Virus record (IMG/VR): IMGVR_UViG_3300026544_000001 | Location: 32,001-96,000 of that record | Length of the DNA: 64,000 nt | Origin: a virus | Reading direction: 5' to 3' (one strand) | Shown here: piece by piece, positions 35,034 to 60,391 of the stretch | Layout: each line of letters starts with the position of its first letter | Position numbering within the stretch: position 1 is the first letter of the stretch | Made by a program: the position numbers and the translations under genes | Notes under the pieces: model-generated | Told to the model about the DNA's origin: nothing | What the model saw: the letters and a program-made list of their open reading frames with translations, nothing else | The model's database searches: none

Positions 35034-35509
35034 TGGCTACTAAAATACAATTACGAAATGATACATCTGTTAATTGGGCAGATGTAAATCCTACCTTAGC
35101 CAGTGGAGAGCATGGGTATGAAACTGATACGGGCAAACAAAAAATAGGTGATGGTACTACTGCATGGGTTGATCTACCGTATAAAATAGTAGGTGAAGCT
35201 AATACATTCACAGCTAGTCAAAGAGGAGCTATAACATCTTTAGCAGATGATACAGTAGCTTGGGATTTTAGAACAACTAATAATTACAGTGTTAGTTTAA
35301 CTGCTGATGCTGATATAACACTAGCTACTGATGGTGCTTTAGGTTGTACTGGTCAAGGTGGTATGTTTACTGTGACTACAGCTGAGCACATAACTGGATG
35401 GAGTGCTGAGTTTAAATGGAAAACTGAACCAACTGACTTAAGTGGTGTTGAGAGATTTGCTTATTTTGTAGAAGCTGAAGATACAATAGCTATTGGTAGG
35501 ATTCAATAA
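35033..35509 (+). CDS. Tail protein with Mtd/hyaluronidase-type N-terminal domain
   Basis: IQLRxDT..NW...NPTLA.GE.GYETDTGK.KIGDG.TAW.DLPY. Confidence 0.8.
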   Translation: MATKIQLRNDTSVNWADVNPTLASGEHGYETDTGKQKIGDGTTAWVDLPYKIVGEANTFTASQRGAITSLADDTVAWDFRTTNNYSVSLTADADITLATDGALGCTGQGGMFTVTTAEHITGWSAEFKWKTEPTDLSGVERFAYFVEAEDTIAIGRIQ

Positions 35510-38500
35510 TGAGTATAGTTAACGGTATGGGTGGTATGTTTGGAGGGTGTACATTTCGCCCTCAGTTAGGATGTACAACTACAAGTATAGTAGATAATAC
35601 TGATCCATTTGGTGATGGTAGTTTAATAGCTAAGTATCTATTAGATGGAGATGCTACTGATTTGTGTGGTAATTATGATAGCGATAGTGAAAATTATAGC
35701 ACCTATTTAAGTGGGGTGTATAATGATTGTATTGCATTTACTGATAAAACTGGGTATGTAAATGTTCCTAATATAGGTCCTATATGTGACTATTCAAAAT
35801 CGTGGACTGTTAGTTTTGCGTGGAAATGGGATGGCGAACAGCCTAATAGTAAATATTGGTTTCTTATCCACATAAATGATTTAGCTATAGAATGGGCTAA
35901 TAATGCTAACGACGGTGAGATATATTTTGCGTTACTAAACGGTGGTACAGGTGATGTTATAGATAGACGCTTTGATGATGATACATTATTCACTGATAAC
36001 AACTGGCATCATACAGTAATAGTACATAAAGAAGGTGTAGATGATTTATTTATTACTATAGATGGTGGTGTATTAACTGAAGAGGATGCTGGATTACACG
36101 ATAATGGTACATTTTATCGTACCGATAATATGAGGATAGGTAATACCGCAGATGATGAGGATAAAGTGAGTGATAGTGGTCTCATAGATCAAGTTGAAAT
36201 ATACAACAGAGCATTAAATCCTCAAGAAGTACAAATGCTATATACTCAAAGTAAATACATAGCTGATCCAACACAATCAATACCAGGTTTAGTAGCACAT
36301 TACCCATTAGATGGTACAGCAGAGGATATACAAGGATATGGAGCTAATGAAAGTGGTGTGGAGTACAATGGAGTAGCATTTGTAGATGAGACTAAGTTTG
36401 GCGGTAGTAAGGTAGCTGTGTTTGATGGTAGTGATGATTATGTGAAGATCCCTATAATTGGCTTATCACCAAGTAATTACACAATGACAGCTTGGGTAAA
36501 AACCACAGGTAGTGGTATATTTACGTCTATGTTATCTGATTCTTTTTGTTACGCTCAAGTAAATGATGATGGTTATTTAAGATCTTATGACCTAAATGAG
36601 GAAGTTATAGGAAGCACTATAGTAAATGATGGAAAATGGCATTTCCTTACTGTTGTTAAAGATAACGGAGTGCAATCTGTGTGGGTGGATAGTATAAAAG
36701 AAGCTGAAAAAGATAATGGAGATAATGGGGATAGTGGAGATAGAATAACATGTATAGGTTGTTATAATACTGAAAGTTCTTTTTTATCTGGTTTTATAGC
36801 AAGAGTTGGTTTTTATAATAAAGCTTTATCAGATAGTGAAATAACTGACCTATACAATCAAGAGAACGAAACAACTGATGGGTTGATTGCATATTACCCA
36901 CTAGATGGTGATGCAAGTGATTATAGTACAAGTAACAATGCTGTATTGGATGGTACAATAAATGGTGATGTAAGCTTTGCTAATGATGATGACTATGGAG
37001 ATAGTGTAGCATCATTTGATGGTGATGGGGATTATGTTAGTACTCAAATAGTACCTGCAGGAGGAGATAAAACATTATCGTGTTGGTTCAATATGAATGG
37101 AACTTCTGATACTCAAGGATTGATATCGTTTCCTACAACTGCTAACGAGTATCAAGGAACATCATTAATAATTGATGGGGATAAATTAGAGGTTAGTGGT
37201 AGAAATGGAGATGGTGCTTTTAAGTCAACTTCAGTTGATTTTACTACCACAAATGAATGGCATCATGCAGTTGGTGTATTGTCAGGTGCAGTATTAACAC
37301 TATACTTAGATGGTGAGGATGTTGCTACACTAGATATGACTGATGTATCTGATGATAAAGATGGGGTTGTTATAGGGTGTGTAAATGGAGATTCTGTAAG
37401 TTATTATACAAACGGCTCAATAGCCAATGTCCAAATATTCAACAGAGCATTAACAAGTGATGAAGTTAATAAACTATATAATAAAGAAACAATAACATCA
37501 GGATTAATAGCTCATTATCCATTAGCTGAAGATGCAACTAATAAAGCAGGATATTATGGAACTGAGAATGGTGGATTGATCTATAGTGAACAATATGGTG
37601 ATAGTGTTGGAAGCTTTGATGGTGTTGATGACTATATAGAGACTACTGAAATGTCATTAGCTTCAGAGTTCACTGTTACTGGTTGGGTTAAGGTTATTGA
37701 CTTAGATAGTGATGAAGACGTGGTTATCGCTATAAATTGGAATGCAGATGCAAGTACGAGATTTGGTATAAAGAGTGATTCTGACGACGATACATCATTA
37801 TCTATACAATGTGGTGATGATGATGCTTGGCATAGTATACCTGGTGCTATTGATAATACTTGGATGTTTATATCAGTTACGTATGATGGTACTGATACAG
37901 TATCAAAAGTATATGGCGAAACTGAAGTTGCATTTACTACGAATGTAACATTAGATAATAGTAAAGTGTGTATAGGTAATTTCAATTCTGATTCTAGTGG
38001 ATATTTCAATGGAAATGTAGCCAATGTTAGAATATACGACAAAGCACTAACAGCAGAACAAATAACAGACTTATACAATAAGAAAGATGTAACTGATGGA
38101 TTAGTAGCTCACTATCCATTGACTAAAGAATGGAGAGCTAGTGATAGATGGGTTGCATATAATGGTACTGAAGTTAGTAATGTTTATGAAGAAGACTCTA
38201 TTAGTGTAGTGTCTAAATTTCCATCAGATGTAAATTCAAGAATAGCGCTTAATCAAAAATTCAATAAAACATATACTTATGGGTTTTGGATTAAAATGCC
38301 AACAGATGATACTACTTTTGTACCTTTGTCTGTATATGAAGGTGATGATGCTAGAGGGTATTTCAACTTAAATAGAGATGATGAACAAGGTTCAATTATA
38401 ACTGCTTATAATGATGGTAGTTGGACCATATCAGATAAACTTACAGGTGCATATACCGATATAAAAGAATGGACTTATCTAGTATTTGTGTGTAAAACAG

Positions 38501-39339
38501 ATAATGTAGATGTATATGCAGATGGAATATATACAGGTAATATAACATCATTACCTATTGAAGAAAGGGATTTATATATAATGGGTGGTGGCCCTAGTAA
38601 TGATAGTTCTGATGATGATGTTTATATCAAAAATGTACGAATCTACAACAGAGCTTTAACAGAAGATGAAATATCTACTATATACAACTACGAGAAAGTA
38701 ACTAGAAATATAGTAGTAGATAGAGGATTGGTAGCTTATTATCCGCTAAAAGATAACAGTAATGATCATTGGGTTAATCAGTTAGATGGAACTGATAATG
38801 GTGATGTAAGTTATGATGGAGTTAGTGCTAGTTTTGATGGAGATGGTGATTATATAAAACTCCCTAATATCACACAGGATACCAGTAGAAGTATGTGCTG
38901 TTGGTTAAAAACTGTAGATACTAATACCCATTATTTTATAACAAATAAAGATAACTCAAGCACTAGTGATGATATAGGAGAGTCTATACAGATGTCTGGA
39001 GATAATTTAGTTGCTAGTGCTAGATGGGCTGTTCAAGGAGAATCTGCTACTATTGATTCAGGTATCTCACCAGCATCAGATATTTGGTATTTTGCTTGTG
39101 TGGTTGTAGACGCTGATGCTTCAACAATGACATTTTATGTTGGTGATACTTATTCAGATACTGCGGATGTAACTTTTAAAGCTACAGATGAAGACAAATG
39201 TATGATAGGTGCTATAGATGACAGTGGTGCTACAGGTTTCGCTAACGGAAAGATATCAAACGTACGTATTTACAATAGAGTACTAAGTCCAGAAGAAATT
39301 ACAACAATATACAATACAGAAAAGGGAGAATTTGAATAA
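35509..39339 (+). CDS. Receptor-binding protein with six tandem LamG/concanavalin-A-like domains
   Basis: Six L(I/V)AxYxL starts; repeats include FDGxxDY, WHH/WHF/WYF and V.IYNRAL...EI..LY motifs. Confidence 0.88.
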   Translation: MSIVNGMGGMFGGCTFRPQLGCTTTSIVDNTDPFGDGSLIAKYLLDGDATDLCGNYDSDSENYSTYLSGVYNDCIAFTDKTGYVNVPNIGPICDYSKSWTVSFAWKWDGEQPNSKYWFLIHINDLAIEWANNANDGEIYFALLNGGTGDVIDRRFDDDTLFTDNNWHHTVIVHKEGVDDLFITIDGGVLTEEDAGLHDNGTFYRTDNMRIGNTADDEDKVSDSGLIDQVEIYNRALNPQEVQMLYTQSKYIADPTQSIPGLVAHYPLDGTAEDIQGYGANESGVEYNGVAFVDETKFGGSKVAVFDGSDDYVKIPIIGLSPSNYTMTAWVKTTGSGIFTSMLSDSFCYAQVNDDGYLRSYDLNEEVIGSTIVNDGKWHFLTVVKDNGVQSVWVDSIKEAEKDNGDNGDSGDRITCIGCYNTESSFLSGFIARVGFYNKALSDSEITDLYNQENETTDGLIAYYPLDGDASDYSTSNNAVLDGTINGDVSFANDDDYGDSVASFDGDGDYVSTQIVPAGGDKTLSCWFNMNGTSDTQGLISFPTTANEYQGTSLIIDGDKLEVSGRNGDGAFKSTSVDFTTTNEWHHAVGVLSGAVLTLYLDGEDVATLDMTDVSDDKDGVVIGCVNGDSVSYYTNGSIANVQIFNRALTSDEVNKLYNKETITSGLIAHYPLAEDATNKAGYYGTENGGLIYSEQYGDSVGSFDGVDDYIETTEMSLASEFTVTGWVKVIDLDSDEDVVIAINWNADASTRFGIKSDSDDDTSLSIQCGDDDAWHSIPGAIDNTWMFISVTYDGTDTVSKVYGETEVAFTTNVTLDNSKVCIGNFNSDSSGYFNGNVANVRIYDKALTAEQITDLYNKKDVTDGLVAHYPLTKEWRASDRWVAYNGTEVSNVYEEDSISVVSKFPSDVNSRIALNQKFNKTYTYGFWIKMPTDDTTFVPLSVYEGDDARGYFNLNRDDEQGSIITAYNDGSWTISDKLTGAYTDIKEWTYLVFVCKTDNVDVYADGIYTGNITSLPIEERDLYIMGGGPSNDSSDDDVYIKNVRIYNRALTEDEISTIYNYEKVTRNIVVDRGLVAYYPLKDNSNDHWVNQLDGTDNGDVSYDGVSASFDGDGDYIKLPNITQDTSRSMCCWLKTVDTNTHYFITNKDNSSTSDDIGESIQMSGDNLVASARWAVQGESATIDSGISPASDIWYFACVVVDADASTMTFYVGDTYSDTADVTFKATDEDKCMIGAIDDSGATGFANGKISNVRIYNRVLSPEEITTIYNTEKGEFE

Positions 39340-50340: not shown

Positions 50341-51189
50341 ATGGAATTCGCAGAAGACGAAAAAGGAATATGGTTAATTCAGCCAAATGGACGAAGAAGA
50401 AGGGCAATCAAAACAAGTTGCAAACACTGCAATAAAGAATTCTTTACACCCAAGAGAACACAGATTGCTAAATTCTGTTCAAGAGAGTGTGTAATAAACT
50501 CAAAATCGCATAAACGAAGAATAACACAGTGTGTTAATTGTGGTAAAGATACTAAAAACGATAAATTTTGCAGTCATAGTTGTAGTGCTGCTTTTAATAA
50601 TAAAAGAAGAAAATTAAGTAAAGAGACGAAAGCTAAAATTAGTATTGCCGCAGTATCAAATATGAGTCATCTTAATTTTATAGGAAATAAAAGTACCAAG
50701 CGTAGACCAAAGTATTGCAAATTGTATTTATGCAAATGTAAAAAATGTGGAAAAGATTTTCTATACAAAAGAAAAGATAAAAAATGCTGTTCGGATAAAT
50801 GCTACCATGAAACAGTAGGAGGGTATAGAGAAAACTCTGTAAGATCAAATGGTGCATATGTTACAGACTCGTTTGGTAATAATGTTTATCTGCAATCTTC
50901 CTATGAACTTGAATGTGCAAAAGTTCTTGATCGTAATAACATAAAATGGGTCAGGCCATCTTATTTAAAGTATAGAGATTCTTTAGGTAAAAATAGAAAG
51001 TATTATCCAGATTTTTACTTACCTAGTATAGATGTGTATCTTGATCCTAAAAATAAATTACTTATAGGTAGAGATACTGAGAAAATACATTTAGCGTCTA
51101 TTCAAAATAATGTAAAGATACTTATTCTTGGGAAAGATATAATATATAATGAAAAACTACTTTTAAAAACAGTATTAATCAAAACTTAA
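50341..51189 (+). CDS. Putative homing endonuclease: Cys repeats plus TnsA-like PD-(D/E)xK nuclease
   Basis: Three CxxC..CSxxC repeats; SSYE...YYPDFYLP...YLDPK; next to the tRNA genes. Confidence 0.8.
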   Translation: MEFAEDEKGIWLIQPNGRRRRAIKTSCKHCNKEFFTPKRTQIAKFCSRECVINSKSHKRRITQCVNCGKDTKNDKFCSHSCSAAFNNKRRKLSKETKAKISIAAVSNMSHLNFIGNKSTKRRPKYCKLYLCKCKKCGKDFLYKRKDKKCCSDKCYHETVGGYRENSVRSNGAYVTDSFGNNVYLQSSYELECAKVLDRNNIKWVRPSYLKYRDSLGKNRKYYPDFYLPSIDVYLDPKNKLLIGRDTEKIHLASIQNNVKILILGKDIIYNEKLLLKTVLIKT

Positions 51190-51370
51190 AACTTATTGTT
51201 ATATAATTATTAAAAATTTAAAAGGATAATTTAATGGATGAAATAGCTGATGAATGTGCAGATATAATTGATAATGTGTTAGAACGTAAGGGTATAACAC
51301 TATCACCTATGGAAATAGATGAAGTAAGAGATATAATACAAACTATATTAGAAGATGGTGGTTATTAATA

Positions 51371-51583
51371 ATGGATCTTATGGGTAATATACTGATAATA
51401 GTATCTATGATAATTGTATTTATAGGTATAAGTAGTATGCTTATAAGAAGCACTAAACCTTGTCCTGAGTGTGGTGGTACAATGACTACAGTAGGTTACA
51501 TAGGCGATAGAAACGGTCCAGCTGTAGATAACATACTTTGGGAATGTAAAGATTGTAACTATAATGAACAGGAGTTGGTGTGA
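51371..51583 (+). CDS. Small membrane-anchored zinc-ribbon protein
   Basis: TM segment, then CPECG...CKDC. Confidence 0.65.
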   Translation: MDLMGNILIIVSMIIVFIGISSMLIRSTKPCPECGGTMTTVGYIGDRNGPAVDNILWECKDCNYNEQELV

Positions 51584-52005
51584 AGGTACATAGTAGAAGA
51601 AACTCTAACAAACGTAATAAGAAGATGGAAAGTCAACGTAGATATAGAGGTAAAGACTTTGCTAAAAGAGATAAACAAATAGCAGATAAGTTCTCTAGTA
51701 TTAAAAGAGTTGAGTTATATAGTAAAGTATATAAAGAAGTTAATTTCAATGGAGAAACTACTTTTAGAGGTAGCGTAAAGACAGAACCAAAACCTATACT
51801 ACTTACTGATGTAGTAGTAGATGGCACATACATTGAATATGTATGGGTTACTATAGGACAAGAAGATTGGGCGAAATTAGCTATGTTACCAAAAGATAGA
51901 GACTCTTACAGAATATATCTAACTGGTGAAGTTCATAAGTATATGACAGATAAATGCTCTACTGAGAAGATAGGTATAAGAAAAGCAAGGTTAATACATG
52001 AGTAA
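51580..52005 (+). CDS. Hypothetical protein, similar to 18822..19133
   Basis: Shared motifs with 18822..19133. Confidence 0.7.
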   Translation: MKVHSRRNSNKRNKKMESQRRYRGKDFAKRDKQIADKFSSIKRVELYSKVYKEVNFNGETTFRGSVKTEPKPILLTDVVVDGTYIEYVWVTIGQEDWAKLAMLPKDRDSYRIYLTGEVHKYMTDKCSTEKIGIRKARLIHE

Positions 52006-52261
52006 TATAATTAAGTATAGTAAAGCTATTAGAGCTTATAGTAATGAGATAGGAACTCCTATTGTAGCTGATATGGATATAGGCGAAATAGCTATGTACT
52101 GGTATGACAAGTACTGCGAGTTAAAAGAAGTAGAAATAAATAACTTTGCACAAGGTATGGAGTATATGGCTAGAGCTACTGCAGCTGAAAGTAAAGCTAA
52201 TGCCTATGCAGAAGCACTGGAAAGTGTACTACTTGTTAGCAGACCTAAGAGGTTATCATGA
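51998..52261 (+). CDS. Hypothetical protein
   Basis: Coupled ORF. Confidence 0.6.
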   Translation: MSNIIKYSKAIRAYSNEIGTPIVADMDIGEIAMYWYDKYCELKEVEINNFAQGMEYMARATAAESKANAYAEALESVLLVSRPKRLS

Positions 52262-52512
52262 ATACAGTAATACTATACGGATTAGTTATTTCTATTATGA
52301 GTTTCTTATATATAGATGTACAAGCTAAGGATAAAGAGATAGCTGATCTTGAGAATAAACTAGTCAACCAGAAAGCTTATCTAGAAGATAAAGTTAAGAA
52401 AGTTGCATTTAATGTAAAGATGCTTACTAAGAAACAATCTATAGAGGAGAAGATTAACTATGACAAGAATAGCTCTAGTGTTAATATCAATAGCTTACGT
52501 ATTTACTATTAG
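52258..52512 (+). CDS. Putative i-spanin (Rz-like)
   Basis: N-terminal TM plus coiled coil; overlaps a lipoprotein gene. Confidence 0.6.
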   Translation: MNTVILYGLVISIMSFLYIDVQAKDKEIADLENKLVNQKAYLEDKVKKVAFNVKMLTKKQSIEEKINYDKNSSSVNINSLRIYY

Positions 52513-52738
52513 TGGATGTGGTACTGAAGCAACTCCTGCAGTACGTCAAAGATTTGAAATGCAGAAAATAGATCTACCAGAAGGTAGTGTGTATGTAGAA
52601 GTAGATAGTGTGGAAACTAGAACTAAATGTACACCAGTTGTGTTAGAAGTAAGTAAAGTACTTAGAGGGGTAATAGGTTTCTATGAGTATCAAGTAGATG
52701 AGTATAATAAGGCAGACAATAATGAAAGTCATAAATAA
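52460..52738 (+). CDS. Lipoprotein, putative o-spanin (Rz1-like)
   Basis: Signal peptide with ISG-C lipobox; overlaps the i-spanin candidate. Confidence 0.65.
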   Translation: MTRIALVLISIAYVFTISGCGTEATPAVRQRFEMQKIDLPEGSVYVEVDSVETRTKCTPVVLEVSKVLRGVIGFYEYQVDEYNKADNNESHK

Positions 52739-53300
52739 ACTTATTGAAGATAAGATGGATGAAGCAGATAAGTTACATCTACATAATGTTAATTGCATAG
52801 CTACGTTATTAGCTAGTATTATGATGTTAGATGATTATGATCTAATGGTAGTTAGTATAGCTGCAGGTATACATGACATAGGTAAGATACAACTAGATCA
52901 GGATGTACTGAATGCAGAAAGAAGGCTTACCGAGGAAGAGTATAAACACGTTAAGCAACATAGTCATAATAGCTCAGAACTATTCATACGTAATGTATCA
53001 GATAGTATGGACACTAACCTAGTGATAGCTATATCAAAAGCAATAATGTATCATCATGAAAGAGAGTCAGGAGAAGGTTACCCTGGAGGACTCAAAGGGC
53101 GTGCTATACCTATTCATGCTAAAATAATAGCTGTAGCTGATGTGTACGATGCATTAAGTAGCAAAAGATGTTATAAGGATAGTTGGGATACTGAAGAAGT
53201 AGATAAACATTTCATTGAAAACAGTGGTAAACTGTATGATAGAGATGTAGTTAAAGCATTATTAGGATGCACATACAATATAAGGAAGTTATACAAATGA
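52722..53300 (+). CDS. Stand-alone HD-GYP cyclic-dinucleotide phosphodiesterase
   Basis: HDIGK, LTEEE...KQH, HHER..G.GYP.GLKG..IP..AKIIAVADVYDAL...R.YK. Confidence 0.93.
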   Translation: MKVINKLIEDKMDEADKLHLHNVNCIATLLASIMMLDDYDLMVVSIAAGIHDIGKIQLDQDVLNAERRLTEEEYKHVKQHSHNSSELFIRNVSDSMDTNLVIAISKAIMYHHERESGEGYPGGLKGRAIPIHAKIIAVADVYDALSSKRCYKDSWDTEEVDKHFIENSGKLYDRDVVKALLGCTYNIRKLYK

Positions 53301-53503
53301 AAAAGCAAGATATAAAATTAACTGTAAGATACATAGTACTAGGTTTCATAATGTACCTAGCGTATAGAGTAACTAGTGCTGAGTATATAATTAGTTTAAA
53401 AGATGTAAACTCAACTACATTACAAGTAGTAGTAGGTGCAATCTTCGGAGCGCTTACAATGATTACTGGCAAGCATTTTTCTGAATCTATAGATAAAGAT
53501 TAA
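53297..53503 (+). CDS. Putative holin (2 TM)
   Basis: Two TM segments and a charged C-terminus; sits within the lysis cassette; probable start MKKQD. Confidence 0.55.
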   Translation: MKKQDIKLTVRYIVLGFIMYLAYRVTSAEYIISLKDVNSTTLQVVVGAIFGALTMITGKHFSESIDKD

Positions 53504-53530
53504 TATTAGTTCATACTTAGAAGGATAAAA

Positions 53531-53866
53531 ATGATTTTACATGAAGATATTTTAAATAATAAGTCACCAGGGAATGGTAAAATAATAAGTACTTTTAAAA
53601 AGTTACCTGACAGGATTAAATCTATACATGGTGATAAGCGTATTAGAGAGGTAGCTAGAAAAGCTGGACTAAAGTATAAAATACATTATATGATTAAAAC
53701 AAAAAATGCTATGGGTATTGAGAAGAAGCTTCTTACTTTTGGTAAGCCAGTAGATGCAGGTAATATAGACGGAAAAACAGAATTCAGAGAAATAGACGAT
53801 AAGTTATTCGGAAGCTTTAGTTGGGTGTTAAAAGAACACTTCAACACAACAATAGATAAGGATTAG
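53531..53866 (+). CDS. Degenerate T5orf172/GIY-YIG-like protein
   Basis: RIREV...IEKKL...DGKTEF present, N-terminal GIY-YIG motif missing. Confidence 0.45.
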   Translation: MILHEDILNNKSPGNGKIISTFKKLPDRIKSIHGDKRIREVARKAGLKYKIHYMIKTKNAMGIEKKLLTFGKPVDAGNIDGKTEFREIDDKLFGSFSWVLKEHFNTTIDKD

Positions 53867-53868
53867 AT

Positions 53869-54264
53869 ATGGGTTATAGATTTGGTAAGACTAGCTTAAG
53901 TAGGCTGGTAGGAGTAGATAATAAATTAGTTGAAGTTGCAAAGACAGCTATTAACATAAGTAAACAAGACTTTACAATAGTAGAAGGATTACGTACACCT
54001 GAGAGACAGCTAGAGTTGTATGAAAAAGGTATGAGTGAGTTAGATGGTTATAAAAATATAAGCTCACATCAATTGGGAGAAGCTATAGATATAGCTCCAT
54101 ATAAAGATGGTAAACTACTATGGTCGTTAACTAACAGTAGAGAATGGTTAGAAATAGGTAGAGCAATGCTAAGGGCAGCTAGATTGCATGATGTTGATAT
54201 AGAATGGGGAATAGGTTATAACATAGGTACTGGTTATGATGCTCCACATTTTCAACTAAAATAA
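53869..54264 (+). CDS. Endolysin, M15 L-alanyl-D-glutamate peptidase
   Basis: S..RL.GV, EGLRT.ERQ..LY, SSH..G.AID, WG and D.PHFQL. Confidence 0.92.
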   Translation: MGYRFGKTSLSRLVGVDNKLVEVAKTAINISKQDFTIVEGLRTPERQLELYEKGMSELDGYKNISSHQLGEAIDIAPYKDGKLLWSLTNSREWLEIGRAMLRAARLHDVDIEWGIGYNIGTGYDAPHFQLK

Positions 54265-54350
54265 TAAGTCTAAAGTATGTAAGCTGAATGTAATATAAAT
54301 TAGCCTATAATGATTTATAAAATAACGAATATTTAACACAGGTAGATATA

Positions 54351-54605
54351 ATGGATAAAAGAATTGCTAAATTAGAGTCTGAATTACAACAGCTGCAAAT
54401 AACAATGAAGATGATGGATGGTACCTTAGAGATACTTAATGGTACACTATCTCGTTTTAATGAATCAGTAAATCATATAAATGAAATAGAAAATATACTA
54501 TATAAGAAAGAACAAAGAAGAACCATAATATGTGCAAGTGCTATAATACTTAGCGTAGGTTCTATTGCTGGTATATTAACTGCAATTACAATGTTTAAAG
54601 GGTAG
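54351..54605 (+). CDS. Coiled-coil protein with C-terminal TM (XhlA/holin-like)
   Basis: Architecture; host-type promoter upstream. Confidence 0.6.
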   Translation: MDKRIAKLESELQQLQITMKMMDGTLEILNGTLSRFNESVNHINEIENILYKKEQRRTIICASAIILSVGSIAGILTAITMFKG

Positions 54606-54609
54606 TAAG

Positions 54610-55080
54610 ATGAGTAAGTATACTGAAATAGAAACTAAAATAAATAAGATGTCAAAAGACTTTAAAGATCAAATACGTGCACTTACAGTTGTCGGTCAGA
54701 GTGAAATAAGTGATTTTGCAATAGACATAAAAACAGATGAGAATAAAGATGTAGTTAGATTCGTTATCCATGCAAATGATGTACTTAATACAAAACAAAT
54801 ACATATAACAAACGCTATAGTAGATATACTTGAAGAGATGCTAAATATTAAAAAAGAAGTTGTTGCAGGTTTAGATGAAATAGAAAACAGAAGAATAACG
54901 CCTAAGAAAGTTGTATCTAAAGGATGGGGTATAATAGAAAAAATAACGGGGTTAAAAACCATACTAGCTTTGATTGTTATACTTGGTATACTTGGTATAT
55001 TTATTACTATGCCAGATCAGACAATAGAGTTATTTAGAAGTGGCGGTTTAAAAGAATTATTAAAAGGTATATTAAGATGA
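54610..55080 (+). CDS. Membrane-anchored protein with C-terminal TM
   Basis: ILALIVILGILGIFIT segment. Confidence 0.65.
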   Translation: MSKYTEIETKINKMSKDFKDQIRALTVVGQSEISDFAIDIKTDENKDVVRFVIHANDVLNTKQIHITNAIVDILEEMLNIKKEVVAGLDEIENRRITPKKVVSKGWGIIEKITGLKTILALIVILGILGIFITMPDQTIELFRSGGLKELLKGILR

Positions 55081-55739
55081 GTATGTTTAATTTTATAAAA
55101 AAGTTATTTAACAAAGAGGAATCTGAAAGTATAATAGAGTACAACCTTGAGGAAGAAACATTGGAACCTGATGACAAGCCTTTGATATGTGCAGATTGTA
55201 ATCTGCAGAAGATAGGTAATTGTAATCCGTGTATAATGGATAATATAGCATTTGTTAATAGTTACCATGCTAATAGAAAAACTCTAATAATTGTAGATGA
55301 TAACAGAGGTTCAGCATCATTTCTAGCAGATGACCTGTATAGAGAGATAGGTGAGGATATTAACATCATAACATTTACTAGTGAGTATGCAGGTTTTATA
55401 TTGGAAGAGATGTTAGATAAGACTGGTATAGGTGTAGACTATGCTATACTAGATATAACCCTAGGTGGAATAAGAAGACTAGGTGGAAAGAATGTTGTAT
55501 ACGATGGAGTAGATATATATAAAATACTAATGGAAAAGAATAGTGAAACAGAGTATCTATTCTATACAAGTAATAATATGAATAAACAGTTGAAAACTAT
55601 CAATGCTTTAATAGTAAAGTATAATAAAACTAATAGAGGTAATGATATAGAAAATAAGATAATCTATAAAGCTAGTAAATTTTCAAAACAAGATATAGAG
55701 AGCATCATTAGTAAATTAAATATTAAAAGGAGCAGATAA
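55077..55739 (+). CDS. Stand-alone response-regulator receiver (REC) protein with a 4-Cys motif
   Basis: LIIVDDN, AILDITL (phospho-Asp), DGVD, LFYTS, IYK; CADC-x7-CNPC upstream. Confidence 0.85.
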   Translation: MSMFNFIKKLFNKEESESIIEYNLEEETLEPDDKPLICADCNLQKIGNCNPCIMDNIAFVNSYHANRKTLIIVDDNRGSASFLADDLYREIGEDINIITFTSEYAGFILEEMLDKTGIGVDYAILDITLGGIRRLGGKNVVYDGVDIYKILMEKNSETEYLFYTSNNMNKQLKTINALIVKYNKTNRGNDIENKIIYKASKFSKQDIESIISKLNIKRSR

Positions 55740-56350
55740 TGCCAGGTAGTTTAAAAACAACGTTACTTTCACTTCTTGTTATCTTTATAATCTTTGTTGG
55801 GTACGTAACAGGTAAAATGGTAGTAGAGAATATAGCTAGTAGTCAGAATATACTAAATCTTAACAGTGTATCTAAATGTGCTAAGAAACTAACAAGATGT
55901 GATATTAGTAATGTTGACGAAAAGCAAATAGTTGAAGTTATGAATATATGTGCAAAGAATGTTAGATCAATTGGTCAAACTGGAGATATGTTTGTTATAC
56001 GTAAAAGTGATGCTAAAATAGTATGGGATGCTTCTCAAGATTGTAGTGTATCTGATAGTAATAAAGCTTTCCTTACCAAAGAAGGTGTGTGTAAGTTATT
56101 TACAAAACCAGATACGTGTAAACAAGCATCTTATATAATGAGAAATGAACCTCCTAGAGGGACATTAAAGTGGACATTTGATGATAGTGAAGAAATAGTT
56201 AATTATCTATACCTAGCTTGTTCTATAGATAATGATCATTACATACTTGGTTGTGGTGCACAAACAGATGAGATAATAACTACACTTAGGGTATTTATTA
56301 TACCTGTACTTTCTCTTCTAGTAATCTTACTTATCGTTATATCAGTATAG
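55739..56350 (+). CDS. Two-TM periplasmic Cache-like sensor without a cytoplasmic domain
   Basis: TM, IGQTGDMFVI...KIVWD, YILGCGAQTDEI, TM; Cys-rich. Confidence 0.65.
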   Translation: MPGSLKTTLLSLLVIFIIFVGYVTGKMVVENIASSQNILNLNSVSKCAKKLTRCDISNVDEKQIVEVMNICAKNVRSIGQTGDMFVIRKSDAKIVWDASQDCSVSDSNKAFLTKEGVCKLFTKPDTCKQASYIMRNEPPRGTLKWTFDDSEEIVNYLYLACSIDNDHYILGCGAQTDEIITTLRVFIIPVLSLLVILLIVISV

Positions 56351-56362
56351 AGTTCATTAGAT

Positions 56363-57547
56363 ATGTTAATACATAAGATAATAATAATTATAGCATTCAC
56401 AATTGTTATGACGCTTGTGGAGCAAGTAGTTAATAACATGTATAAACTACTTAATTCACAGAAGTACTACTATTTACAATACAATAAAGGTAAAGAGATA
56501 ACTAGGAGAGAGTGTGTAAAACTATTTAACTGTAAATATGTTATTAAGATAGATAGCTATAAATTTGTAAAAAAGACTTTTGATAAAGGTTATGTTATAT
56601 CTAAAGAAGAGGTTATTCCTACATGGAAAGCAATACTTGATAATAAAGTATACATAGATCTAAATACAATGATGGTTGGTGTTAGAGCTGGTAAGGATAG
56701 AATAATTTTTAAAAACATATTTATCATTACAGGTAATAATATAAGAACAATTATGGTTAGTAGCCCTATATATGTGTTGTTTATACTCTATATGGTTATT
56801 GTACTTAATGATGGAAAAAGAAAACATGATATAATTAAAAATAGAATGAATGAGTACAGTGTTGAGTTAAGAGGTATTATAATGTTTAGTGAAAATCTTA
56901 ATCATGAAGTTAACAATGCATTAAGTGTAATAAATAATAAAGCTCGACTTGCATTGGAAAAAGTTAATAGAACATGTATGGGTAAAGAGATAATAAACAA
57001 TGATTTTGAATATATATTTGATGCATGTGATCAGATAGAAACTATAACAAAGAAGTTACAAGGTATAAAACACTTTAAGCATAATAGCGATCATAGAACA
57101 TTATATGAGGTTATACAAAAATCATTTGATTTCGCTACACTAGGTTCACCTAATGTAAAAACTACTATAGATGAAAAACTACTTAGTTATGAAGCTAAAG
57201 GTATTAGTAATATTGACCTTCATGGTAGATTACTAAACCATATAAAGAATAGTATAGAGGCTAAAGCTAGTGAAATAAAAATAGTACTAGGTAAACTAAA
57301 AGGGGATACTATCGGGTTATATATTATAGATAATGGTAATGGTGTACCTGCAGAAGTTAGGAATACTTTATTTGATGAAAATGTAAGTAGTAAGAAAGAT
57401 AAAAACTATGTAGGTGGTAATGGTATGTATATTAACAAACACATAATGAAAGCCTATGGAGGGGATATACGTCTTGTTAGTAGTATACCTGGTAAAACCG
57501 TATTTGAATTATCATTTAAATACAGAAAGATATCAAGCAAAAATTAA
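56363..57547 (+). CDS. Membrane sensor histidine kinase (HisKA + HATPase_c)
   Basis: Two TM; H-box NHEVNNAL, N-box NHIKNSIEA, G1 DNGNG, F-box LF, G2 GGNGMYI, YGGDI. Confidence 0.93.
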   Translation: MLIHKIIIIIAFTIVMTLVEQVVNNMYKLLNSQKYYYLQYNKGKEITRRECVKLFNCKYVIKIDSYKFVKKTFDKGYVISKEEVIPTWKAILDNKVYIDLNTMMVGVRAGKDRIIFKNIFIITGNNIRTIMVSSPIYVLFILYMVIVLNDGKRKHDIIKNRMNEYSVELRGIIMFSENLNHEVNNALSVINNKARLALEKVNRTCMGKEIINNDFEYIFDACDQIETITKKLQGIKHFKHNSDHRTLYEVIQKSFDFATLGSPNVKTTIDEKLLSYEAKGISNIDLHGRLLNHIKNSIEAKASEIKIVLGKLKGDTIGLYIIDNGNGVPAEVRNTLFDENVSSKKDKNYVGGNGMYINKHIMKAYGGDIRLVSSIPGKTVFELSFKYRKISSKN

Positions 57548-57594
57548 GAAGGATTAGTATATAATTACATATAATTTATAAAAGGAGAACAACC

Positions 57595-58050
57595 TTGACT
57601 CAACAACAAGCAGAAGAACTATTTGAATCTATAGGTAAATCAGTAGATGAAAGATTAAAAAAAGATAGGTTAACTGTACTTATAGGGCAAGAGAAGTTCT
57701 ATAAACTTAAGTTAGAGACTATAGGTAAAGAAACTGATGAGTTAGTTGAATACTTTCTAAAAAAATCAAATATTACAACTAATAAGAAAAGATCTCCTTG
57801 GTTAAACAAGGTATTAACTAAACTAGGTATGGTCCCTATATTAGTAGCACTAAGTATAACTAGTGTATCATACAGCAGTACTGTGGTGGTTAATGAAGAT
57901 GTTATGATAGACTTAGCATTTGAGCCTAAACAATCTTTAACTTGTAAACTACTACATGAAGGTTGTGGTACAGATTTATACAAAAAACTTTGGGGTACAG
58001 ATAAAGGTAACTTGAAGAATAACTATGGTATACTTTCTACAATAAGTTAA
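57595..58050 (+). CDS. Hypothetical protein
   Basis: AAAGGAG RBS and TTG start; ELFESIGKSV resembles DLAESMGLSV of 58733..60391. Confidence 0.65.
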   Translation: MTQQQAEELFESIGKSVDERLKKDRLTVLIGQEKFYKLKLETIGKETDELVEYFLKKSNITTNKKRSPWLNKVLTKLGMVPILVALSITSVSYSSTVVVNEDVMIDLAFEPKQSLTCKLLHEGCGTDLYKKLWGTDKGNLKNNYGILSTIS

Positions 58051-58059
58051 GGAGTTGCC

Positions 58060-58713
58060 GTGAATATCAAAATATGTACAAAATGTAAACAAGAATTGAC
58101 ATTTGATAAATTTGCAAAAGCAAAGAAAGGTAAATTCGGTATAGAGGCTGTATGTAAAGAATGCAAAAAAATGTATACTAGAAGTGTAGATGGGTTAGTT
58201 AGAGAATTATTTAATCAACAGAAAAAATCTAGTAAACATAGAAATCAAGTAGGTACTGTAGAATATACACTTGAGGAATTACAATCTTGGTGCAAAGGTC
58301 AAAAAGAATTCAAGAATCTATATGATAATTGGGTAAAGTCTGACTATAACACTAAGTTGAGACCGTCGATAGATAGGCTTGATGACTATAAAGGTTATTC
58401 ATTTGATAATATTCAACTGATGACATGGATAGAAAACAAGCAAAAGGGCCACGACTCTCGTAAAAATGGCAGCAATAATAAAGATAGTAAGGCTGTGGTT
58501 CAACTAGATATGGATGGTAACTTTATTGCAGAGTTCTACTCTCAAAAAGAAGCTATGCGTCAAACTGGTATAAACCATGCTAGAATATCTAAAGTATGTA
58601 GAGGCGATTGTACAACCAACCCTGTTGGTAAACAATATAAAAGCTTAAGTACAGGTGGTTTTAAGTGGATGTTCAAAACAGAATATGATAGCTTAAACCC
58701 TAATAATTTATAA
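58060..58713 (+). CDS. Homing endonuclease-like protein (HNH-like core plus NUMOD1)
   Basis: CTKC..CKEC, PSIDRLD..KGY..DNIQL...EN, VVQLD..G..I..F.S..EA...GFKW. Confidence 0.85.
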   Translation: MNIKICTKCKQELTFDKFAKAKKGKFGIEAVCKECKKMYTRSVDGLVRELFNQQKKSSKHRNQVGTVEYTLEELQSWCKGQKEFKNLYDNWVKSDYNTKLRPSIDRLDDYKGYSFDNIQLMTWIENKQKGHDSRKNGSNNKDSKAVVQLDMDGNFIAEFYSQKEAMRQTGINHARISKVCRGDCTTNPVGKQYKSLSTGGFKWMFKTEYDSLNPNNL

Positions 58714-58732
58714 AACAAGAAAAGGATTTAAC

Positions 58733-60391
58733 ATGGCTGATAACGTGACTTCGGATGATTTAGAAAAGGCATTGAGTGATTTAGCAGAGTCTATGGGGCT
58801 TTCTGTAAAAGAATACGTAGAAGGTGGTTTCTTAGACCTAACAACATATAATGAGGCTCAATCAGCAGTAATTGCAAGATTAGATGCAATTGATGTAATT
58901 GATGCAGAAGATGATGTTGAAACAATAGCAGAGAAGCTTATTGCAATTAATAAAGTACTAAGTGATGATGATGGAGTATTACAAAATATTCTAAATATGA
59001 TTAATGATAATCAATCACAAATCGTTACTGAGTCAGATAGAGCAAAAGGTGTTGAAGCTGGATTAAGAACAGATGTTGATAATGCTACTTCAAAAGGTAA
59101 TGCTAATGAATCTGCAATCAATGATATCAAATCTGGTATAAGTGATTACAAAACTACTACTGAAGATAGATTCACAGCAGTAGAAGGTAGAGTTACAGAT
59201 GATGAAGCTGCTATAGCTACATTAACTGCAGATGTTGATACAGAAGGTTCTGTAGCATACTCAGTTGAACAAGAAGCTATCAGAGCTAAATCAGTAAGTG
59301 GTAAACTTGCAGACTTATCTACAGATGATAAAGATTCATTAGTTGGTGCAATCAATGAAGTTCAAGCTGAAACAATAACTGCTCAAGCTGGTGTTGATGG
59401 TTTAGTAACTAGAATGGGTTCTGCTGAAGAAGCAATCAATACAATTAATGGTGACGTAGATACTGATGGTTCTATGGCTAAAGCTATTAAAGTTGCTGAT
59501 GATGCTGTAAGAGCTGACATTGCTGCTGATATTGAATCTACAAGAAGTGGATTACAAGATGGTATAGATGCTAACACAGGTGCAATCGCTGTATTAAATG
59601 GTGATGACGAAACAGAAGGTTCTGTTGCAAAAGCTATCAAAGATGCTACTGGTGGAGATATCAGTGATTTAAGTGATAGAATGGATGCTACTGAAGCTGC
59701 TACATCTACAAATAAATCATCTATTGATTTACTAAATGCTGATGATCAAACTGAAGGTTCAGTTGACTACAAAATAGCACAAGCTGCTGGTGAGTCAAAT
59801 GAAGTTACTGATGCACTATCTGATAGAATCACAGTAAACGAAGGTGATTTAGCTACACTTAAAGGTGATGCTGAGACTGAAGGTTCAGTTGCTAAACAAG
59901 TTGCTGATGCTAAAGCTGCTACTGATGCTGTAGTTGCTGATAACAAAGCTGCTATAGAGTCTACTGTATCTGATTTAGATGATAGAGTTGTTGCTAATAA
60001 AACTGCTGCTGCAGATGCACTAGCTGCTGCTAAAACTGAGTTAAGTGATTCAATCGCTGCTGAAGTAACTAGAGCTACAGACGCTGAAGTTGCATTAGGT
60101 GATAGAGTTAAAGTTAATGAAGATATCTTAAATGATACAACAGATGAAGATGATAACCTAGTTAAAGGTATCGTTACTAGAACATCTGATTTAGAGTCTG
60201 CATTAAGTGCACAAGCTCAAAAACAAATTGATGATCTTCAAGCTGCAATTGATGATTTAAAAGCTTACTCTGATTCAAATGATTTAAAAGCTGCTTCAAT
60301 GGATATTTGTGGTGTTCACAATAAATTCAGAGGTGCTCTTGGATTAGGTGATAAAGACTGTGGTGGTGACGGAGACGGTGAGGCTGTATAG
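58733..60391 (+). CDS. Acidic coiled-coil structural (fibre-like) protein
   Basis: Repeated LNGDxxTEGSV motifs; LxTxDKxSLVGAINE; D/A-rich. Confidence 0.75.
   Translation: MADNVTSDDLEKALSDLAESMGLSVKEYVEGGFLDLTTYNEAQSAVIARLDAIDVIDAEDDVETIAEKLIAINKVLSDDDGVLQNILNMINDNQSQIVTESDRAKGVEAGLRTDVDNATSKGNANESAINDIKSGISDYKTTTEDRFTAVEGRVTDDEAAIATLTADVDTEGSVAYSVEQEAIRAKSVSGKLADLSTDDKDSLVGAINEVQAETITAQAGVDGLVTRMGSAEEAINTINGDVDTDGSMAKAIKVADDAVRADIAADIESTRSGLQDGIDANTGAIAVLNGDDETEGSVAKAIKDATGGDISDLSDRMDATEAATSTNKSSIDLLNADDQTEGSVDYKIAQAAGESNEVTDALSDRITVNEGDLATLKGDAETEGSVAKQVADAKAATDAVVADNKAAIESTVSDLDDRVVANKTAAADALAAAKTELSDSIAAEVTRATDAEVALGDRVKVNEDILNDTTDEDDNLVKGIVTRTSDLESALSAQAQKQIDDLQAAIDDLKAYSDSNDLKAASMDICGVHNKFRGALGLGDKDCGGDGDGEAV

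Follow-up and report, generated by a model that had tools for sequence, protein, structure and literature searches.

Eleven genes lying next to each other on the + strand of a virus genome assembled from metagenomic data join a phage lysis cassette to a set of signalling proteins, which form a real, conserved and virus-restricted two-component module with a non-transcriptional output. The stretch of DNA analysed here, called the window, is 64,000 nucleotides (nt) long and covers bases 32001-96000 of the 124,676-base IMG/VR virus record IMGVR_UViG_3300026544_000001, which is estimated to be 94% complete; coordinates below are those of the window unless another contig is named. The conserved core of the module is made up of a small tail-anchored membrane protein (here tm156), a stand-alone receiver and a sensor histidine kinase, in that order. 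In the window the core is encoded behind the lysis cassette, and control of lysis is a plausible role for it. The genes of the block are the following (aa, amino acids; TM, transmembrane; ORF, open reading frame):

52258-52512, + strand: i-spanin candidate, 84 aa, with an N-terminal TM segment and a coiled coil (by architecture and position)
52460-52738, + strand: o-spanin candidate, a 92-aa lipoprotein with lipobox ISGC (by architecture and position)
52698-53300, + strand: stand-alone HD-GYP phosphodiesterase, 200 aa (192 aa from M9 according to gene callers; HD_5, 3.7e-24)
53267-53503, + strand: holin candidate with two TM segments (by architecture and position)
53531-53866, + strand: 111-aa ORF of unknown function (no family match)
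53869-54264, + strand: M15 (D-Ala-D-Ala peptidase type) endolysin without signal or TM segment (Peptidase_M15_4, 1.2e-6; phrog_465, 4e-37)
54351-54605, + strand: tm84, an 84-aa tail-anchored coiled-coil membrane protein (TM from residue 57)
54610-55080, + strand: tm156, a 156-aa tail-anchored protein with a cytoplasmic helical N-domain and one C-terminal TM segment, first of the trio (family alignment A3)
55077-55739, + strand: stand-alone receiver (REC), 220 aa, CheY fold at residues 68-213, phospho-acceptor D126 (by predicted fold and catalytic residues)
55739-56350, + strand: 203-aa protein with a Cys-rich extracytoplasmic Cache/PAS-like domain between two TM segments and no output domain (by predicted fold)
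56363-57547, + strand: sensor histidine kinase, 394 aa, composed of TM1, an extracytoplasmic domain of ~100 aa, TM2, a DHp domain (H181) and a CA domain (HATPase_c, 9.5e-12)

An earlier note on this DNA had described eleven co-oriented genes in this order, and all eleven ORFs are present at these coordinates on the + strand, with one label (GIY-YIG) that fails, as described below. The overlapping and coupled packing was also confirmed: tm156 and the receiver gene share ATGA at 55077-55080, the receiver and the 203-aa gene share TAATG at 55739, and the lipoprotein ORF starts 53 nt within the 84-aa i-spanin ORF. The remaining intergenic gaps are of 2-27 nt, with the exception of 86 nt 3' of the endolysin. 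The GC content of the block (0.28-0.33) is shared with its flanks, as had been claimed (0.28-0.38 in the entire + strand block from ~26 kb). A scan for promoters and terminators detected no terminator-like sites on the + strand in 51000-59000, and promoter-like sites in the block were no commoner than in shuffled sequence.

The kinase is recognised by its HATPase_c match and by the presence of an H-box together with N, G1 and G2 boxes, in agreement with the label it had been given. The Pfam HisKA model gave no match to it at E<=1, and the profile of the kinase family aligns (2e-12) with both the DHp domain, starting at the H-box, and the CA domain of Thermotoga HK853. H181 and E182 are kept in all 27 kinase homologues, N292, N296, D323, G352 and G354 in 26 and G325 and G327 in 25, some of the homologues being cut at the end of the contig. 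The motifs ENxxHE, NHxKNS, DxGxG and GNG are invariant in the alignment of 11 relatives (A1). The residue three after E182 is T, S or N in 26/27 homologues, which we take to fit the HisKA phosphatase motif. It is likely that the kinase belongs to the HisKA type (class I), and with its catalytic residues intact it is predicted to autophosphorylate.

The receiver is a more divergent protein. Its Pfam Response_reg match (E 0.054, 14.1 bits) stays below the cut-off of 30.2 bits, and only 6/24 members of the receiver family match that model at E<=0.1. As a single sequence it had no match in PDB and the family profile was used thereafter; the profile matched CheY with E 0.002, CheY proteins being its best matches. 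The AlphaFold model, made from an alignment of 24 sequences (A2), has a mean pLDDT (predicted local confidence) of 84.6, with values >88 over residues 61-220, and consists of five strand-helix units, with a beta-hairpin of ~10 residues inserted after strand 3, right behind the phospho-Asp. All 40 matches listed in the Foldseek search against PDB contain receiver domains (E from 2e-5, probability 1.00, TM-score by target at most 0.73), and RcsB, CheB, DesR, Spo0F, CheY and RR468 are included among them. The catalytic quintet is conserved, with D74, D75, D126 and T/S164 in 27/27 and K198 in 25/27 members. The five-unit CheY fold and the quintet thus bear out the REC assignment made earlier, though Pfam is below its cut-off, and the sub-threshold score marks a divergent member of the family and not a non-member. 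The receiver carries neither a DNA-binding nor an enzymatic output domain, consistent with the proposal of the earlier note that the system uses no DNA-binding output, and no further Response_reg match was found in the 124,676-base genome. Residues 1-60 (55077-55260) are poorly modelled and open with a conserved basic-hydrophobic motif (consensus F-x-K-x-x-F), which may be a membrane-targeting amphipathic helix. The same N-terminus carries a CxxC...C...C motif (here CxxC-x7-CxxC) in 6/27 members, the present one included, and could bind zinc.

The receiver-kinase pair was found in 27 loci on large contigs of viral or metagenomic origin. The scans of viral, genome and metagenome data behind this distribution use short peptide patterns, and absence in them means that no pattern matched; the exhaustive HMMER scan covered the 203-aa protein, and the distribution of the kinase and the receiver comes from the motif scans. 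Scanning IMG/VR with motifs of alignment A1 gave 25 loci on contigs of 10-273 kb, seven of them at least 90% complete and three with terminal repeats. The receiver is encoded directly 5' of the kinase in 24 of these 25 (the 25th contig begins inside the kinase), and likewise in L029, L031 and L032 (L numbers denote the compared loci). When kinase motifs were searched over 185,579 bacterial and archaeal species genomes, again limited to motifs, only two fragments of metagenome-assembled genomes (MAGs) of 1.4 and 5.8 kb were obtained, and the longer of them carries tm156, receiver and kinase. The genes form a clade found almost only in viral contigs, which supports the suggestion that they are owned by phages. 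A host chromosomal operon nearly identical to the module had been named as the finding that would speak against this, and no such operon was found in the motif-limited scan; the best non-self relatives of the kinase are unnamed metagenome proteins at no more than 54% identity, ordinary bacterial-type kinases appear only at E 1e-6, and the module recurs in 25 other viral contigs. A tblastn search of the kinase against GenBank phages gave one weak match to the CA domain in the unverified record MT835706.1, with no receiver beside it, and was not counted. A full-text literature search found no description of the tm156-receiver-kinase trio, and supplementary tables, which lie outside that search, might list such genes.

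Proteins of the tm156 type (150-200 aa) stand directly 5' of the receiver in 22/27 receiver-kinase loci according to a hidden Markov model (HMM) which was itself built from 18 of those 22; BLAST clustering independently put them in several clusters. A tail-anchored ORF occupies the same place in four further loci, and one locus has none. No match to tm156 was found in Pfam, PHROG or PADLOC, and ESM Atlas gave only unnamed viral clusters with sub-threshold scores. For the neighbouring tm84, a homologue with 53% identity is found in L032, and its PHROG matches are weak and to families of unknown function only. Neither tm84 nor tm156 has a PHROG match to an annotated holin or antiholin family or a Pfam family at the cut-off. 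PADLOC had no matches for the receiver, the kinase, tm84, tm156 or the 203-aa, 111-aa and 151-aa proteins. Complex prediction for receiver residues 60-220 with tm156 residues 1-106, run without controls, gave a score of 0.00, which speaks neither for nor against binding.

Kinase and receiver have diverged far (median pairwise identity among the 27 loci 26% for each), and their distances correlate strongly (Mantel r 0.80, with 0/2000 permutations as high), and therefore the two genes have been inherited together. The correlation shows co-inheritance and not co-adaptation, as relatedness alone would give much of it. The module shows that phages maintain a His-Asp signalling of their own through long periods of evolution instead of simply borrowing genes from the host.

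The 203-aa protein had been described as a Cache-like sensor with two TM segments. The AlphaFold model (pLDDT 92.6) begins with a TM-plus-stalk helix, continues with a PAS-like alpha/beta module and closes with another TM helix, and the best Foldseek matches are extracellular sensors, namely 3lib (the sensor domain of a histidine kinase, 4e-4), the dCache domains of TlpA, PctA and PctB, PscC and 2qhk (TM-score 0.51/0.67). The fold thus agrees with the description, but none of the 34 family members tried matched a Cache Pfam model and cytoplasmic PAS/LOV domains score nearly as high, and therefore we call it Cache/PAS-like by fold. Among 1.84 billion representatives, the exhaustive scan picked up 38 relatives, of which only three fall outside 170-280 aa, and the family carries conserved Cys pairs. 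Profile-profile comparison with the kinase family indicated that the two sensor domains are unrelated. A gene of this family lies between receiver and kinase only here and in L003, L031 and L032. The 203-aa protein is probably a co-sensor of the kinase in the present lineage, a lineage-specific addition whose binding to the kinase is putative.

In the lysis cassette, the endolysin is firmly identified by its Peptidase_M15_4 and phrog_465 (endolysin) matches, as proposed earlier. For the i-spanin, lipoprotein and holin labels, the topology, the lipobox, the overlapping genes and the conservation in L032 fit, but none of the three candidates matched a Pfam or PHROG family. The true start of the holin candidate is probably M11 at 53297, in an ATGA overlap with the stop of the HD-GYP gene. 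The 111-aa ORF had been labelled a degenerate GIY-YIG protein, which was not upheld, with no GIY-YIG match at E<=1, a best Pfam E of 0.14 and no PHROG match; no homologue of it was found in any compared locus, L032 included.

The closest relative of the block is L032, a metagenome contig of 15.7 kb whose proteins are ~50% identical. The genes come in the order i-spanin, o-spanin, holin candidate, endolysin, tm84, tm156, receiver, an insert, Cache-like protein and kinase, and the counterparts of the i-spanin, the o-spanin and the holin candidate (67 aa) are 40%, 79% and 42% identical, respectively. The M15 endolysin is replaced in L032 by a gene of Phage_lysozyme type. The insert between receiver and Cache-like gene (4398-4727 of L032) encodes a 109-aa protein of the antibiotic biosynthesis monooxygenase (ABM) family (6e-12). 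Comparison of synteny across related contigs, as the earlier note advised, thus places the module directly behind the lysis cassette both here and in L032.

Adjacency to lysis genes recurs in other loci. In L002 and L009, tm156 is immediately preceded by a GH108 lysin, itself divergent, together with a holin (phrog_3427, 1.4e-28). L026 has a set of holin-like, spanin-like and lipoprotein genes plus an M15 gene downstream of the kinase, and in a scan of that set itself a weak match to an Rz-like spanin was obtained; by homology to it, genes for a holin-like protein, a spanin-like protein and a lipoprotein immediately precede the module in L014. In L018 the M15 gene is 2.7 kb upstream, and in the window the endolysin lies 2.1 kb 5' of the kinase. 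Endolysins were searched with three Pfam families and by BLAST of the M15 protein of the present phage, and an endolysin is found at most 8 kb from the kinase in 7/12 loci where one could be placed. These seven represent about four lineages, three unrelated endolysin families and both orientations. The Phage_lysozyme model itself matched in 0/25 IMG/VR records. The recurrent adjacency is suggestive of a functional tie.

The HD-GYP identity is confirmed, as HD_5 matches with 85.8 bits against a cut-off of 27.2 and the motifs HDIGK, HHERESGEGYP and DVYDAL are aligned with PDB 4mcw (6e-25); V-cGAP3 (PDB 5z7c) is matched at 2e-19, and PADLOC gave only generic HD (Cas3/Cas10) matches. The gene sits between the o-spanin and holin-candidate genes and is translationally coupled to both. 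Identity to the nearest relatives does not exceed 47%, and 15/39 non-self relatives are REC-HD-GYP fusions; source labels of RpfG type are carried by four of these 15 and by four other HD-GYP relatives. A pattern scan of IMG/VR gave no close homologue. L032 is without the gene, its o-spanin gene overlapping the holin-candidate gene directly, and HD_5 occurs in only 2/25 other kinase-bearing viral records (in one of the seven that are at least 90% complete), ~32 kb and ~100 kb from the kinase. Therefore the HD-GYP gene is not part of the conserved module. From its low identity to relatives, the many REC fusions among them and its absence from L032, it is best read as an ancient insertion, specific to this lineage, of an output domain that has lost its regulator. 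The earlier note had made cyclic-dinucleotide turnover a part of the kinase circuit, and this part has to be given up. HD-GYP was also considered as the output of the relay and was rejected on the same grounds, as it is not co-conserved with receiver and kinase and is absent from L032.

Taken together, we favour, with a probability of roughly 0.45, the reading that the block holds two separate things: a relay module (54351-57547) most likely acting in lysis or in another late event at the envelope, and an independently inserted HD-GYP gene. A cue from the envelope or periplasm would reach the kinase, with the 203-aa protein probably acting as co-sensor here. The kinase would autophosphorylate H181 and pass the phosphate to D126 of the receiver, a phosphotransfer that we infer because the catalytic residues are intact and conserved; indirect support for it comes from the neighbouring position of the two genes in 27 loci and from their co-divergence. 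As the receiver has no DNA-binding domain, it would therefore act through protein contacts. Phosphorylated, it would do so at the inner membrane, with tm156 as the leading candidate target and tm84 and the holin as others. The outcome would be an adjustment of when or how lysis proceeds, or of some other late event at the envelope. This role is proposed because the module is co-oriented with and tightly packed behind the spanin-holin-endolysin cassette and because the adjacency recurs elsewhere, and judged by position it is the most likely one. The HD-GYP protein, with its catalytic motifs intact and no regulator, would not be the output of the relay but would most likely degrade host cyclic di- or oligonucleotides, either disarming a CBASS-type defence or lowering c-di-GMP. 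Such a counter-defence role has been predicted for HD-GYP enzymes of jumbo phages by Iyer et al. 2021 (PMC7824862).

Several observations weigh against this reading. The endolysin is distant from the kinase in 5/12 loci, namely L010 (18 kb), L011 (24 kb), L022 (18.5 kb), L020 (~95 kb, by a match below the cut-off) and L025 (~114 kb), and in 16 loci the three Pfam families used as queries detected none. The seven near loci come from only about four lineages, and therefore the enrichment is suggestive and not statistical. Even without the module, the present lysis cassette seems to be complete. A secreted protein of ~90 aa with a KGW-x-R motif is encoded after the kinase in ~11 loci, and in 7-8 of these there follows a ~400-aa protein with a signal peptide and C-terminal Phe (for example L006 10875-12421, L007 11119-12659 and L019 10862-12294). 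The ~400-aa protein matches DUF3373 in L019 (5e-10) and is probably an outer-membrane barrel. Neither gene is present in the window, and they point to a broader envelope role. Finally, the HD-GYP gene is tightly coupled in translation within a lysis operon that is presumably late, which would be an unusual place for an enzyme of anti-defence.

The preferred reading can be sharpened into a virus-only His-Asp relay of large lytic phages in which the phosphorylated receiver acts directly on tail-anchored membrane proteins instead of DNA and gates hole formation or an envelope step, timing the burst by an extracytoplasmic signal. We put this forward as tentative. The signal would be superinfection, lysis products or the state of the envelope, received here through two receptors, the kinase loop and the Cache-like co-sensor. 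If true, bursting gated by a relay would add a mechanism of lysis control that is new and differs from the lysis-inhibition machineries of T4 and N4. A narrower variant is that a second phage or the lysis products of neighbours are detected and answered with lysis inhibition or exclusion, by a logic like that of T4 and N4. It agrees with the presence of two extracytoplasmic sensor domains, with an N4-like terminase (~33% identical) and with the lysis inhibition of N4, for which a preprint (PMC12642591) describes the signal as uncharacterised. The lack of a PHROG match between tm84 or tm156 and an annotated holin or antiholin family speaks against it; moreover, it is a special case of the preferred reading and indistinguishable from it by sequence alone, and we consider it unlikely. 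A role outside lysis has to be weighed as well, in which the behaviour or the envelope of the infected cell is reprogrammed. In this case the receiver could take the place of CheY at the flagellar switch or act as a phosphate sink for host relays, or regulators of the host could be cross-phosphorylated by the kinase; alternatively the module could regulate envelope proteins encoded by the phage, for example the DUF3373-like protein of the outer membrane. The single-domain CheY-type receiver whose best profile matches are CheY would suit this, as would the distance of the module from the endolysin in about half of the placed cases and the secreted and DUF3373-like genes after the kinase. For the cultured Alteromonas phage V22, a CheY-like gene is also given as auxiliary and as acting in signalling (PMC7289586). 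However, the partner that is strictly conserved is a phage-only tail-anchored protein and not one of the host, kinase and receiver have diverged in step as a closed pair, and the module is repeatedly found next to lysis genes, with endolysins of three unrelated families and in either orientation; host manipulation of this kind is thus the less likely reading.

The integrated circuit envisaged in the earlier note, in which the receiver would control the HD-GYP protein in trans like a split RpfG and lysis or host state would be set through the level of cyclic dinucleotides, is very improbable. The REC-HD-GYP fusions among the relatives, the coupling of the HD-GYP gene to the o-spanin and holin genes and its place in the same co-oriented block as the relay are in line with such a circuit. 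Against them stand the rarity of HD_5 in the other kinase-bearing records and its distance of tens of kb from the kinase, its absence from the otherwise syntenic L032, the lack of close homologues in viral contigs and the co-conservation of the receiver family with the kinase and tm156 instead of HD-GYP. The receiver and HD-GYP genes are separate, 1.8 kb apart and not co-conserved, and no fusion of RpfG type is found in the window. An artefact, either bacterial DNA misassembled onto a phage contig or a very recent capture of a host operon, has a negligible chance. The record is metagenome-assembled and without terminal repeats, and nothing else favours it. A chimeric join had been named as a danger, and none was seen: a 14,807-base contig made with a different assembler, from a sequencing run that is possibly the source of the window, covers 51000-58500 with one difference and no joint. 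The composition equals that of the flanks, the module is found in 25 other viral contigs of which three have terminal repeats, the scan of species genomes gave only the two short fragments, and the closest homologues are at most 54% identical. Misassembly and host contamination are refuted for practical purposes by the second contig, the composition and the other viral contigs.

The module resembles HisKA kinases paired with stand-alone receivers, such as Thermotoga HK853-RR468, CheA-CheY and KinA/B-Spo0F, in the ENxxHE H-box and the N, G1 and G2 boxes, in the (beta-alpha)5 receiver with an acidic pair, phospho-Asp, Thr and Lys and in adjacent genes that co-diverge. In contrast to these pairs, it occurs almost only in viral contigs, its receiver falls below the Pfam cut-off and carries the ~10-residue hairpin insert and a ~60-residue N-terminal extension, and the receiver gene is preceded by that of a phage-only tail-anchored protein. 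It is also without a DNA-binding output and without a flagellar or sporulation context. The 203-aa protein is similar to accessory sensors of the QseG-QseE type in being a separate extracytoplasmic protein encoded beside a kinase that has its own sensor loop, but it is a protein of Cache/PAS fold with two TM segments and conserved Cys pairs, from a family of 38 representatives. How lytic phages sense conditions and decide on the burst is understood in few models, such as T4 with RI and T and N4, for which the question is still open; for temperate phages, quorum or arbitrium systems are among the few understood examples. The present module provides mutable residues (H181 and D126) for probing signal-controlled lysis or envelope remodelling.

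In T4 (holin T, antiholins RI and RIII) and N4 (gp62 and gp63; PMC12642591), membrane proteins encoded beside holin, endolysin and spanin genes could adjust the timing of lysis to a sensed cue in a similar manner, and the cassette of N4 opens with the spanin genes, as it does in the present phage. The differences are that tm84 and tm156 match no annotated holin or antiholin family in PHROG and that T4 and N4 lysis inhibition senses by direct protein-protein or protein-DNA contact, whereas His-Asp phosphotransfer is proposed here. The 'Receiver domain' mentioned in the N4 preprint (PMC12642591) is a region of the pinholin and not a REC domain. The HD-GYP protein is like that of RpfC/RpfG in its intact HD and GYP motifs and in having REC-HD-GYP fusions among its relatives, but it stands alone, 1.8 kb from the receiver gene. 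It shares the lack of a regulator with the jumbo-phage HD-GYP enzymes (PMC7824862) and with the V-cGAP 3'3'-cGAMP phosphodiesterases (PDB 5z7c). Unlike these, it is encoded within a lysis cassette and the pattern scan found no close viral homologue. Once separated from the relay, it is a candidate for a cyclic-nucleotide anti-defence or c-di-GMP-lowering enzyme in its own right.

Regarding the surroundings of the block, the absence of an integrase or transposase nearby, as had been noted, holds among the ORFs scanned around it, with the qualification that two homing-endonuclease-like genes flank it. These are listed here together with genes for a ClpX-like AAA+ protein (AAA_2, 1.7e-22; ClpX zinc finger, 2e-4), which in four of the compared loci lie divergent from the tm156-receiver-kinase genes:

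50341-51189: HNH/NUMOD-type homing-endonuclease-like gene (phrog_1271, 6e-9)
58060-58713: HNH/NUMOD-type homing-endonuclease-like gene (phrog_1035, 1.5e-22, with NUMOD1)
L005 5146-6297, minus strand: ClpX-like AAA+ gene
L006 7017-8192, minus strand: ClpX-like AAA+ gene
L007 7332-8570, minus strand: ClpX-like AAA+ gene
L012 7039-8217, minus strand: ClpX-like AAA+ gene

In L002 (2768-7129) and L009 (3180-7493), an ORF of 1437-1453 aa resembling a fused beta/beta' RNA polymerase (NADYDGDQ, recognised by eye) is located just 5' of the lysin-holin-relay block. The L002 gene had no match in the present phage genome, and therefore the relay is common to unlike phage groups. The window had no match in a DNA search against 50,697 GenBank phage records, and the large terminase shares ~33% identity with its counterparts in N4-like Alteromonas, Vibrio and Pectobacterium phages. 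In the sequencing run of a second study, three contigs of 151 bases with 0-1 differences were found at 55801-55951, 56927-57077 and 57181-57331, in the Cache-like and kinase genes. The phage or a very close relative may thus occur in another sample, and the three contigs are too little for a claim on habitat.

The + strand block, which extends from ~25 kb to 64 kb, encodes the terminase, three very large proteins and fibre-like proteins. Among the three giant ORFs after the terminase is that of a 1276-aa protein (35509-39339) with six Laminin_G_3 (concanavalin-like lectin) repeats (1e-98), likely an adhesin or fibre. A 552-aa Ala/Asp-rich coiled-coil fibre-like protein is encoded at 58733-60391, and its relatives are found just 3' of the kinase in two loci (L002 and L009) and at another place in L026.

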